Assembly (NCBI GenBank): GCA_002707835.1
Contig: PANZ01000012.1
Location: 55,340 to 98,690 of the forward strand
From: Chloroflexota bacterium
GTDB taxonomy: Bacteria; Chloroflexota; Dehalococcoidia; UBA2979
Direction: 5' to 3'
Length of the DNA: 43,351 bases
Position 1 is the first letter of the stretch; every line of letters starts with the position of its first letter. The notes under the pieces were generated by a model, which was not told the origin of the DNA, made no database searches, and saw only the letters and a list, made by a program, of their open reading frames with translations. A program made the translations under genes and the position numbers. This document shows, piece after piece, positions 9,901-32,409 of this stretch.

Positions 9901-10992
9901 TTAATTACCTAATCGAGATAAAACTTCATCGGCAATTTCAATAGTATTCAATGCATTACTTTCAGAAGTCAAATCAGCAGTTCTCAGTCCATCTTCGATT
10001 ACTTGACTAACCGCCTCTTCAATAGCTACTGCCTCTTCTTCAAGTCCACACGAGTGACGTAACATCATTGCAGTACATAAAATCATTGCTAGTGGATTGG
10101 CAATATCTTTACCAGCGATATCAGGCGCAGAACCATGTATAGGTTCATACATGCCAAAGGCAGTTCCAACTTCTCCAGGTGTAGATAAAGATGCTGAAGC
10201 GAGCATTCCCATAGATCCAATCAACATGGAAGCTTCATCTGTAATTATGTCACCAAACATATTGCCCGCAATAACCACATCAAAGTCACTAGGCCGCTTA
10301 ATCAAGTGCATAGTCATAGCGTCAACTAACACATCTTCATATTCAACTTCAGGAAATTCTTTTTGTACTTCATGCACAATTTCTCTCCATAGTCGAGATG
10401 ATTCCAATACATTAGCTTTATCAACATTGGTTAATTTATTACGTCTTTGCTGTGCAAGTTTGAATCCGAGTCTTGCAACTCTCTCAACTTCATCTTCACG
10501 GTAATAAATTGTATCAACAGCAGCGCGGAGATTATTTTCATTTCTTCTTTCTTTTGGTTCACCAAAATACGCACCACTAGTTAGCTCTCTTATAACCATA
10601 ATATCGGTACCTTCAAGAATTTCTTGTTTTATAGATGAAGAATCTAACAACGCAGGAATTGCTTTCACTGGACGTAAATTAGCCCACAATTGCAACTCCG
10701 ACCTTAATGCAAGCAAACCTTGTTCAGGACGAACAGGCGCTGTCGGATCATCCCACTTTGGTCCACCTACGGCTCCAAACAAAATTGCATCAAAATCTCG
10801 AGCATCTTGGAGAGTCTGTTCACGTATCGCAACACCAAATTTGTCTATACAGTCTCCGCCGACAGTATCATGTTTAAGGCGGAAGACATGTTCATATTGT
10901 TGTCCGATTAACTCTAAAGTCCTAACACCTTCTTTAGTAACTTCCGGACCTATTCCATCACCAGGTAACACGAGAATATCAAAACTAGCCAT
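9901..10992 (-). CDS. leuB: 3-isopropylmalate dehydrogenase
   Basis: PGDGIGPEV, GAVGGPKWD, VDKANVL, NMFGDI, YEPIHGSAPDIAGK. Start set at ATG 10992, behind AGGAG. Confidence 0.97.
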   Translation of the reverse strand: MASFDILVLPGDGIGPEVTKEGVRTLELIGQQYEHVFRLKHDTVGGDCIDKFGVAIREQTLQDARDFDAILFGAVGGPKWDDPTAPVRPEQGLLALRSELQLWANLRPVKAIPALLDSSSIKQEILEGTDIMVIRELTSGAYFGEPKERRNENNLRAAVDTIYYREDEVERVARLGFKLAQQRRNKLTNVDKANVLESSRLWREIVHEVQKEFPEVEYEDVLVDAMTMHLIKRPSDFDVVIAGNMFGDIITDEASMLIGSMGMLASASLSTPGEVGTAFGMYEPIHGSAPDIAGKDIANPLAMILCTAMMLRHSCGLEEEAVAIEEAVSQVIEDGLRTADLTSESNALNTIEIADEVLSRLGN

Positions 10993-11093
10993 GAAATTAA
11001 CTCCTAAAATTTTTAAACTAATGCGCAATATCATATAAATTAAAATTTTGATTTCAGGGCAAAATTTTGTAACAAGTCTATATTTTAAGCAAG

Positions 11094-11363: not shown

Positions 11364-11409
11364 GCCTGCACTCCTATCTAGTGCTCCGGTAAATTACCGA
11401 ATTGGCCTG

Positions 11410-11540
11410 AAAATTGCTTACGAGGTTAGCTGACGGGTTCGGGTTGTCAGGACACCCGCTCTTCGCGAAGAGTTCACCCCAATTAATGGTTCCCCCGATC
11501 TCAATTATGAAATTCATAATTAAAGATTCAGCAGCTATAC
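11410..11540 (-). ncRNA. Cyclic di-AMP riboswitch (ydaO/yuaA class)
   Basis: Minus strand reads GCTGAATC...GATCGGGGGAACCA...TTGGGGTGAA...CCCGAACCCGTCAGCTAACCTCGTAAGC, the conserved blocks of the ydaO-yuaA aptamer in the correct order, with variable hairpins between them. Confidence 0.93.
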
Positions 11541-11682
11541 AACCTAGTGGTTGTGATTCTTTTAACAAGATCATACTTATCTCTGACAACATGTCAATAG
11601 AATACGCTAAAAATCTTAAATTTAAATATCCACATTCTTTCTTCTATACAAACAACAAAGTAAATTTCATAGGGAGAATAAA

Positions 11683-29538: not shown

Positions 29539-30693
29539 TTAATTGCTACTCTCAATTCTAATTGACACGATTGTAATATTCTCCTTATCGACATCAGGTT
29601 CAATTGAGAGAATACCGTTATAACCTAAATTAGTATTTTGAAAACCTAATAAACTAGATGATTCTCGAGACATATCTTCAACCAATTCCCATCCTTGAGT
29701 ATTTAGTAACTCGCGGTACAAATCTGCTATTGCCGAGACTGTCTCATTAGACTGTAATGAACTTTGAAAATTTGTAGCGCCTTGATCTACAGACCAATTA
29801 AGATCGGTAACCACTGAACCTTCTAGAAAAAGAAATTTAGCAGGAAATTTTTTAGGAATAGGGCGTGATATGGATTGTACTGTTGTTCTTATATCAAATT
29901 CCATATCCGATTCAATATCTAACCGATACATTACGGATGATTTTGCAGAAGTAATTTCATCTAAATTGGCCATAACATTATCAAGATCATTTATTGATTC
30001 AATTTTATTACCTTCAATTGATGCAATTATGTCACCATTAATCAAGTTGGCATGATATCCCGAATCTGTTACGACTAGCGCATTACCTTCTTCTTCGTAA
30101 GTCAAACTGAGAAATGGTGCAATGCTTCCACGAGGGAATTCCACCAAAACTGATTCCTTATCACGTAAGATTTCCATATCAATCTTTAATGTGGGAGGTA
30201 AAGCCTGTATGGTCGCTAAACCTGTAATAGCTGGACTTTCAGTATTCCTAAAGGAAACAACCGAAAAAGTACTGCTTGATTGTCCACCGTCCAATTGCCA
30301 TGGACTAATATTCAATTGCTTTTGAATATCCTCTTCAACTCTTACAGCATTATCAAGAACATCGAAAATTAACCATACTACATGTGAACCATTCTGCTTT
30401 AAGACATGATAGGAAGTTAATAATTCTCCTTCTGGGTGAACAGGGAGCGCCATAGGTTCTTCACGAGTTTGATAAGTTGTTGAGTTTAATAAATATGATA
30501 AGTACGGAGGTAAGCTTTTTTCAAAATAAAATACCTGACTGTCTGTATCACTACCTTCAAACAAACGAAAATATTGATCAGATCCATTGGAAAAATTTGA
30601 TAAATCTTTTGAATCTTCTCTATCGACAAAACAAGATAAACCAAGACACGCAATAATAGTTATTAAAAAATAAATTCTTTTTGACATAGACAC
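29539..30693 (-). CDS. Hypothetical lipoprotein with a central PDZ-like segment
   Basis: Signal peptide with lipobox LGLSC; L..GDII.SIEG.KI.S..DL resembles PDZ; C-terminal Y...L...GW motif. Confidence 0.65.
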   Translation of the reverse strand: MSMSKRIYFLITIIACLGLSCFVDREDSKDLSNFSNGSDQYFRLFEGSDTDSQVFYFEKSLPPYLSYLLNSTTYQTREEPMALPVHPEGELLTSYHVLKQNGSHVVWLIFDVLDNAVRVEEDIQKQLNISPWQLDGGQSSSTFSVVSFRNTESPAITGLATIQALPPTLKIDMEILRDKESVLVEFPRGSIAPFLSLTYEEEGNALVVTDSGYHANLINGDIIASIEGNKIESINDLDNVMANLDEITSAKSSVMYRLDIESDMEFDIRTTVQSISRPIPKKFPAKFLFLEGSVVTDLNWSVDQGATNFQSSLQSNETVSAIADLYRELLNTQGWELVEDMSRESSSLLGFQNTNLGYNGILSIEPDVDKENITIVSIRIESSN

Positions 30694-31397: not shown

Positions 31398-31494
31398 TGG
31401 CGGGAGTGCGTGGGAGTCGAACCCACCCAGGACTACGACGTAGCCCCGCAACGGTTTTGAAGACCGCGAACACCACCAGGCACTATCCACTCCC
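31398..31494 (-). tRNA. selC: tRNA-Sec (UCA)
   Basis: 97 nt; anticodon loop CTTCAAA; 6-bp D stem with TGGT loop; long variable arm CGGGGCTAC/GTAGTCCTG; 8/5 acceptor/T-stem register; G73 and CCA. Confidence 0.96.
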
Positions 31495-31585: not shown

Positions 31586-32089
31586 TTGACAATCGAACAA
31601 CCTTCAGAAGACGATCTTTCGCAAGCTTCACCAGACAATATCAATAAGATGCGCAAGTTTGTTAATAATTTTGCAGAAAAAAGTGGTAGCTTTTTACACC
31701 CACAATCTGAGATTACAGAATTTCTAGTAATCGGTTTAGCAAAAAATATTGATGAGGTAGGACGACCTCTTTGCCCATGTATGTTTTTTGAAGACAAGGA
31801 AGAAGAGATCGAAAAGAAATTTTGGATTTGCCCTTGTGAAGAAATGCAGAGATGGAAATATTGCCACTGACTACTCTTTTGCGACGAGGAAGGTCTTCCC
31901 GTCACAGAACATTTACCAGAAGATCATGAAGGCCGAGAAGCTTATGGTCATCGCAAAGACCCAGACCCTAGTAAAGGTAGGGCTTTAGGAAAGCTTGAAG
32001 AAAAACAAGGTAGGTCACTTAAAAAAGGACAGCGAGCCAGTGAAGACTCCGATCAAACTGAAAATCAAAATCCGAAAAATGTTATTTAG
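31586..32089 (+). CDS. Selenocysteine-containing ferredoxin:thioredoxin reductase catalytic subunit (167 aa, Sec at codon 95)
   Basis: C63PC65...C82PC84...C93-H-[TGA 31868-31870]-LLF has the spacing of the FTR CPC/CPC/CHC motif; frame continues 72 codons to TAG 32087-32089; SECIS-like hairpin follows; tRNA-Sec adjacent. Confidence 0.9.
31877..31909 (+). promoter_or_regulatory. Bacterial SECIS element
   Basis: TTTTG-c-GACG-a-GGAA-[GGTC]-TTCC-CGTC-a-CAGAA hairpin; G-initiated apical loop 21 nt after the UGA. Confidence 0.8.
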
Positions 32090-32409
32090 AGTACCGCATC
32101 TATATGCTTGGCAAGTTCACTTTTTGGACGAAATCCTATAACTTGACCAACATTTTCACCACCTTTGAAAAGTAATAATGTTGGGATAGAACGAATTCCA
32201 TACTTACCTGATACTTGAGGATTCTCATCAGTATTTAGCTTCACAAATTTAACTTGTCCATCGTAGTCATCAGATAATTCTTCTACAACTGGAGCCACCA
32301 TCCTGCAAGGTCCACACCAGGGAGCCCAAAAATCTACCAAAACAGGTAGTTCAGAATTTAAAACATCAACTTCAAATGTTGAATCTGTAGTATCCGTAGG
32401 ATGTGCCAT
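32086..32409 (-). CDS. trxA: Thioredoxin
   Basis: [15 protein letters not shown]. Confidence 0.97.

Follow-up and report, generated by a model that had tools for sequence, protein, structure and literature searches.

A probable selenoprotein of the ferredoxin:thioredoxin reductase family in marine Dehalococcoidia

Homologues of the catalytic subunit of ferredoxin:thioredoxin reductase (FTR) were described as a new selenoprotein family in the Global Ocean Sampling metagenome (Zhang and Gladyshev 2008, PMC2398784); that paper reports two sequences, one of them with two selenocysteines (Sec) at both redox-active Cys positions, and a predicted SECIS. In two later reviews the family appears as 'Ferredoxin-thioredoxin reductase, COG4802, CxU', also given as 'FtrB, CxU' (2022, PMC9312934), and under NF041072, with two Sec (2026, PMC13188914). 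The open-access literature that we searched held no biochemical work on any Sec-FTR and nothing on FTR in Chloroflexi.

The chemistry of interest is that of the Cys-containing enzyme. As Dai et al. are said to have established in 2000 and 2007, FTR residues 55, 74, 76 and 85 bind a [4Fe-4S] cluster, the redox-active disulfide is formed by 57 and 87, and residue 87 binds cluster iron in the one-electron intermediate.

Here we describe a gene of this family in a 43,351-nucleotide stretch of DNA from a Dehalococcoidia genome (the window). It is very probably a genuine selenoprotein gene: a single-subunit homologue of the FTR catalytic subunit in which the UGA at codon 95 is decoded as Sec by way of a hairpin. 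The case is carried by coding continuity past the UGA, by the hairpin and the Sec machinery, and by the fold and the equivalence of position with the last active-site Cys of FTR. What is new is the clade-wide extent of Sec-FTR in Dehalococcoidia, the conserved hairpin and the adjacency of both selC and trxA, together with a variable subunit that was not found, an association with a further Cys (Cys99) and the systematic truncation of these genes at 94 aa in public records.

Reading frame, protein and the UGA codon

Under translation table 11 the open reading frame at 31586–31870 (+) ends ...KYCH, followed by TGA. When TGA is translated as U the frame yields C63, C65, C82, C84, C93 and U95, then LLF, and continues for 72 further codons to a TAG at 32087–32089; between 31586 and 32089 (+) this is the one in-frame TGA. 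The original prediction had drawn attention to the ending at ...KYCH, to LLF and to the open stretch of 72 codons, all of which are present in the sequence, and to the gap before trxA, which measures 215 nt without read-through and becomes a 4-nt overlap with it. Coordinates of the features are given in Table 1.

Table 1. Features of the Sec-FTR-like locus, in window coordinates.
Feature	Position	Strand	Basis or detail
tRNA-Sec gene (selC), divergent, 91 bp upstream of FTR start	31398..31494	-	ARAGORN tRNA-SeC, anticodon tca
FTR-like gene, probably Sec-containing, complete	31586..32089	+	167 aa, TTG start, TAG stop, TGA=U translation
Five Cys codons of CPC...CPC...CH(U) (C63, C65, C82, C84, C93)	31772..31864	+	translation
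In-frame UGA (probable Sec95), equivalent of Synechocystis FTR Cys87 (last Cys of CHC)	31868..31870	+	gapless 1dj7_A alignment
Cys99 codon (TGC), four residues after Sec	31880..31882	+	goes with Sec clade
SECIS-type hairpin: 4 bp, bulged A (31887), 4 bp, loop GGUC (31892-31895)	31883..31903	+	single-sequence fold and covariation
trxA, convergent (tail-to-tail), 4-nt overlap with FTR stop	32086..32409	-	PF00085 115.9 bits

The translated product matches the Pfam family of FTR catalytic chains (PF02943, FeThRed_B) with 83.1 bits against a gathering score of 22, over residues 19–103, so that the match spans the TGA. A phmmer search of PDB sequences places residues 19–100, without a gap, on residues 11–92 of the Synechocystis FTR catalytic chain (1dj7_A): at this offset of 8 the six motif residues fall on 55, 57, 74, 76, 85 and 87, and the CPC-X16-CPC-X8-CHC spacing is identical, with U for the last C in the window protein. 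The TGA thus lies where the original prediction had put it, at the last Cys of CPC/CPC/CHC, and its partner in 1DJ7, residue 87, is what we take to be the cluster-interacting Cys of the redox-active pair. The five Cys columns of the motif are invariant in alignments of 26 and of 103 homologues.

The fold agrees with this assignment. An AF2 model of the window protein (103 homologues) reaches a mean pLDDT of 90.3 and a pTM of 0.82, with block means of 96–98 over residues 100–140, order to ∼148 and disorder only from 151. Its core superimposes on 1dj7_A with an rmsd of 1.0 Å over 88 columns (TMt 0.78), and weaker matches are found to 4tpu (FDR) and 7pwe_B (a Grx/FDR fusion), with TMt of 0.36–0.39 and 23–26% identity. 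Beyond the core lies a conserved C-terminal extension of ∼50 residues, not present in solved FTRs. The window protein is a single-subunit, C-terminally extended FTR-like enzyme of a non-photosynthetic bacterium.

A TGA at such a position could in principle be a TGC or TGT altered by faulty sequencing or assembly. This explanation is refuted, its residual probability being vanishingly small: positions 31868–31870 are covered without a difference by contigs of four runs from four studies, two of DNA and two of RNA libraries (the latter may contain DNA, and so show presence of the codon, not translation), and 16 further genomes of the family likewise have TGA at this codon. The original prediction had named TGC or TGT in the reads as refuting; the contigs show TGA. 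Nor is TGA reassigned genome-wide, since it terminates 7 of the 37 long open reading frames of the window; no other convincing selenoprotein context emerged when the remaining TGA-interrupted frames of the window were scanned.

Among 41 related genomes (that of the window included) 23 have a match, and 17 of these have a copy with one internal TGA; all 17 belong to the window's own family. A scan of one genome per species gave 80 loci, the best of 568 ranked by likeness to the Sec-form query, and all 80 are named Dehalococcoidia or Chloroflexota MAGs. Both sets together contain 99 true gene rows, 90 with TGA and nine with TGC at the motif; an extra TGC row on the minus strand of locus L059 is spurious and was left out, and in one locus (L031) the scan of both sets did not find the motif. 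With identical sequences removed there remain 77 distinct TGA forms and eight TGC forms, with the difference at the same codon. This 77:8 ratio is not a prevalence, since the 80 loci were chosen out of 568 for their resemblance to the Sec-form query, and the 77 are not as many independent observations, being close kin on a tree that needs only two Sec/Cys changes.

Public collections offer a different picture, in which the gene ends at the TGA. A word-indexed protein search gave 1541 proteins at E ≤ 0.001 among 1586 candidates; four of the 120 matches listed end at 94 aa, exactly at ...CH, and one of these is a cluster (P0059) of 43 members, 99% identical to the window protein. Named NCBI examples of these genes are 94 aa long, and the 94-aa products (clusters P0059, P0070, P0079, P0122 and P0045) are called 'ferredoxin-thioredoxin reductase catalytic domain-containing protein' or 'hypothetical protein'. 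Taken at face value, such records would mean a 94-residue product or a decaying pseudogene, behind which the frame is open by chance. We hold this to be very improbable: gene callers yield 94-aa records of this kind for any selenoprotein gene, a 94-aa product would stop short of the final residue of the active site, and 77 distinct sequences all have the TGA at one and the same codon. Moreover, the 50 downstream codons are conserved with the Cys forms and are under strong purifying selection, and the region they encode is predicted to be folded (pLDDT 96–98). The best full-length matches (147–161 aa, 60–71% identical) have CHC and then the same ∼50-residue sequence as follows U95; homologues thus carry Cys at the U95 position and are conserved beyond it, as the original prediction had expected, and do not end there. 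For the 48 codons after the TGA, comparison with the closest relative (locus L013) gives dN 0.018, dS 0.934 and dN/dS 0.019; for the 12 other pairs of 13 dN is 0.13–0.31 and dN/dS is not given, because dS is saturated.

The preferred reading – a UGA decoded as Sec within a longer gene – has a practical corollary. Because public records cut these genes at 94 residues, annotations across a Dehalococcoidia clade lack the residue that completes the active site as well as a conserved ∼50-residue domain.

The hairpin and the selenocysteine machinery

The SECIS-like hairpin that the original prediction had placed after the TGA is present and is conserved with covariation. It begins 12 nt after the UGA and its loop, with G as the first base, begins 21 nt after the UGA; a weaker lower stem pairs 31877–31881 with 31905–31909. 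Spacing and G-first loop presumably agree with the rules for bacterial SECIS elements known from the bSECISearch literature, and the layout of stem, bulge and tetraloop appears to resemble that of the E. coli fdhF element.

Folded alone, the window sequence does no better than chance would readily allow (z = −1.31, a fold equalled by 20 of 200 shuffles). Across the 77 TGA forms 95.1% of the 616 cells of the named hairpin are paired, three of its eight pairs vary on both sides (36 double-change cells), none of 500 shuffles matches its pairing or covariation score, and sliding the 3′ arm by 1–3 columns brings pairing to 63% or less – controls that overstate the case somewhat, as the 77 forms are closely related and one of them supplied the structure. 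The hairpin also sits in a conserved coding stretch, so that protein constraint explains part of its conservation. Third codon positions are informative here: numbered from the T of TGA, those at +24, +27 and +30 fall inside the upper stem and loop, and 75–76 of the 77 TGA forms share one base at each of them. TGC forms are mixed at these positions, and variation is free at the nearby third positions +39, +42, +45 and +48. The folding energy of the local 30-nt stretch has a median of −8.1 kcal/mol in TGA forms (range −10.8 to −5.2) as against −4.05 kcal/mol in TGC forms (−8.1 to −1.2), the two distributions overlapping.

RNAalifold, applied to the alignment of 77 sequences, returned a different, weak consensus (−4.43 kcal/mol) without compensatory changes; this structure was set aside in favour of the named hairpin, which is paired in 95% of cells and which no slid or shuffled control equals. 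A search of 31800–32000 against Rfam at E up to 10 found no SECIS family, the three matches being at chance level and to unrelated families.

The genome encodes the machinery for Sec insertion. The tRNA-Sec gene that lies divergently upstream of the FTR-like gene scores 74 bits with Rfam RF01852 (gathering score 47), and selA (506.8 bits), selB (313.1 bits) and selD (359.3 bits), all above curated cut-offs, are found on other contigs. The original prediction had named selA, selB and selD as genes to look for: all are present, with tRNA-Sec in addition. Elsewhere, tRNA-Sec lies inside 12 of 60 related loci scanned, and all 12 are among the nearer relatives.

Two observations stand beside these. 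The selD of the genome is itself a selenoprotein gene, with one in-frame TGA, within a Sec-type motif, in the N-terminal active-site loop (L009, G000:C4, position 1531); a comparison of the FTR hairpin with the region after the selD TGA supports no claim of a common motif, a small selD hairpin being possible with a loop that differs. In the related locus L041, a 98-nt 'tRNA-Trp' called by ARAGORN at the gene end was dropped, as it had no Rfam tRNA support.

Sec and Cys forms and the Cys99 position

The relationship between Sec and Cys forms was analysed by FastTree on 218 rows (78 Sec, 140 Cys) with the Sec/Cys position masked. The Sec/Cys label changes only twice on this tree, which is unrooted; the directions of change given here are therefore readings, not results. 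One group, with support of 96, unites 77 Sec rows with four Cys rows. The four cluster together inside the group, three of them retain Cys at the position four residues after Sec (+4), and they look like a single reversal from Sec to Cys. A mixture of the two forms is seen at close range in cluster P0045 (90% identity), which holds both 148-aa Cys forms and 94-aa truncated forms.

The sole Sec row outside the main group (L026, 1609–1671, −) sits among Cys forms and has Val at +4. Its hairpin also differs, with 5 bp, a 5-nt loop and −6.8 kcal/mol. Its placement suggests a second, independent switch from Cys to Sec. Separately, one related genome (G003; contigs C61, C57 and C31) contains a Cys-form as well as a TGA-form copy, so the two types can coexist as paralogues.

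The +4 position, Cys99 in the window protein, follows the same division: C occupies it in 73 of the 77 TGA forms, whereas all eight TGC loci, like 109 of the 115 Cys forms from the database, have V. This association amounts in essence to a single event, because the Sec forms are nearly one clade and provide only two independent pairs. It is conceivable, and in our estimation unlikely, that this new Cys (U-x-x-x-C) was acquired together with Sec95 in the main clade as a third redox-active chalcogen, parking Sec or relaying electrons. The idea that Cys99 is required for Sec function is weakened by the Val of L026 and by the four of 77 TGA forms that have no Cys. A reason at the level of RNA is possible, if weak, since 73 of the 77 sequences have the second base of this codon, a G, paired within the lower stem. 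Residues 95–99 are extended and non-helical in the AF2 model. Were the redox reading of Cys99 true, it would provide a protective selenenylsulfide or an electron relay, and an active site unlike that of canonical FTR; the flow from ferredoxin to thioredoxin in an abundant marine Dehalococcoidia lineage would then be selenium-dependent, by way of an Fe–Se intermediate, given that the gene is the sole one of FTR type in the genome.

The middle motif varies as well. At codons 82–84 (window 31829–31837) TGA forms have CPC in 56 of 77 and CAC in 21 of 77; all eight TGC loci, like 77 of the 115 Cys forms from the database, have CAC, and classical enzymes have CPC.

Thioredoxin, mechanism and comparison with known systems

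The genome is 1.64 Mb in size and 94.36% complete (the window has 37.8% G+C), and its one PF02943 gene is that at 31586–32089. As the sole FTR-type gene, it would tie part of the lineage's thioredoxin system to selenium supply. The gene is found in marine metagenomes of about a dozen studies: the stretch occurs, among the matches listed, in 20 marine-water runs from 12 studies, and the source sample may be among these runs.

What the enzyme reduces is suggested by its neighbour. The tail-to-tail gene is a thioredoxin (TIGR01068, 132.2 bits against a cut-off of 96.8), and in 40 of 89 TGA locus rows, as against none of nine TGC rows, the FTR-like gene is followed directly by a convergent trxA homologue. 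This thioredoxin is the likely substrate of the FTR-like enzyme. The FTR variable subunit (PF02941) was not found in the genome, at 94.36% completeness, by a search that matched in the Synechococcus elongatus control genome; the enzyme does not appear to be a classical heterodimeric FTR, and ferredoxin dependence and thioredoxin specificity are assumed. The genome also has a TrxB-like gene (281 bits, below the 343-bit cut-off), so that thioredoxin reduction need not rely on the Sec-FTR-like enzyme.

These facts leave room for another function, in which the UGA is read through and the enzyme uses ferredoxin electrons to reduce some other disulfide or a small molecule, in the manner of the FTR-like reductases of methanogens and Desulfotalea, with Sec serving that chemistry. 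The negative search for a variable subunit and a conserved C-terminal extension foreign to solved FTRs are in keeping with it, as are the existence of the TrxB-like gene, the 49 of 89 TGA locus rows in which trxA is not adjacent, and the presence of 4tpu and 7pwe_B among the structure matches. The last are, however, weaker than those to FTR: the best matches in both sequence and structure are true FTR catalytic chains (TMt 0.78 against 0.36–0.39), and the present locus, like 40 of the 89 rows, has trxA next to the gene in convergent orientation. On balance we consider a substrate other than thioredoxin improbable, and retain thioredoxin reduction as the preferred reading.

The following sequence of events can be proposed. 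SelB and tRNA-Sec would decode the UGA at codon 95, directed by the hairpin that starts 12 nt later. By analogy with the mechanism of the cyanobacterial enzyme, C63, C82, C84 and C93 would hold the [4Fe-4S] cluster, and C65 and U95 would form the redox-active selenenylsulfide beside it. On arrival of the first electron from ferredoxin the Se of U95 would bind cluster iron, and C65 would attack the disulfide of thioredoxin; with the second electron U95 would resolve the mixed disulfide and reduced thioredoxin would be released. The selenenylsulfide and the transient Fe–Se bond at U95 are suggested by position and by homology with the cyanobacterial enzyme. A natural Sec at a residue presumed to ligate the cluster at the one-electron stage would offer a spectroscopic handle (77Se) and a natural comparison of Sec with Cys on a much-studied mechanism.

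The remaining neighbours in the window are of housekeeping type: plsX, cysS and genes for a methyltransferase and a flavin reductase. Between tRNA-His and cysS lies a 384-aa open reading frame (29539–30693, −) with no Pfam family at E ≤ 1e-5, the N-terminus of which resembles, by eye, a lipoprotein signal. Further away, the window contains a c-di-AMP (ydaO-type) riboswitch (Rfam RF00379, 83.6 bits) at 11400–11543 (−). The next long open reading frame downstream, at 9901–11034 (−) and ∼365 nt away, encodes an isocitrate/isopropylmalate dehydrogenase; this would be an unusual riboswitch target, and a small gene may exist between the two.

Among known systems, the FTR of cyanobacteria and chloroplasts (1DJ7, 2PVO, 7BZK) has the same six-residue CPC/CPC/CHC spacing and the same core fold as the window protein, and shares with it a thioredoxin gene as neighbour. 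The window protein differs in having Sec for the last Cys and a C-terminal extension of ∼50 residues; its host is a non-photosynthetic member of the Dehalococcoidia, in whose genome the variable subunit gene was not found. Methanosarcina acetivorans FDR (4TPU) and the Desulfotalea Grx/FDR fusion (7PWE) resemble the window protein in having an FTR-like Fe-S core without a variable subunit; in contrast, they include rubredoxin or glutaredoxin domains, their entries report no Sec, and their similarity to the window protein is much weaker. Mammalian thioredoxin reductase also reduces thioredoxin with a Cys–Sec selenenylsulfide, but is an unrelated NADPH-dependent flavoprotein in fold, and its Sec does not lie beside an Fe-S cluster.

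The closest relatives are the marine sequences already reported, and here the original prediction was right in stating that Sec-FTR had been predicted bioinformatically before (PMC2398784). The sequences of that paper and the window protein have in common membership of COG4802/FtrB, marine origin, CxU, a predicted bacterial SECIS and Sec at a redox-active Cys position; the window protein has one Sec (U95) and retains Cys65, whereas one of the two reads of PMC2398784 is double-Sec. Against NCBIfam NF041072 (FtrB family double-selenoprotein) the window protein, with TGT at codon 65, scores 48.3 bits, which is below the cut-off of 160 and means that it is not the double-Sec equivalog; matches above that cut-off occur in none of 201 Chloroflexota genomes. 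The window protein is a single-Sec relative. The Sec-FTR family is already catalogued, and the window gene adds a member to it.
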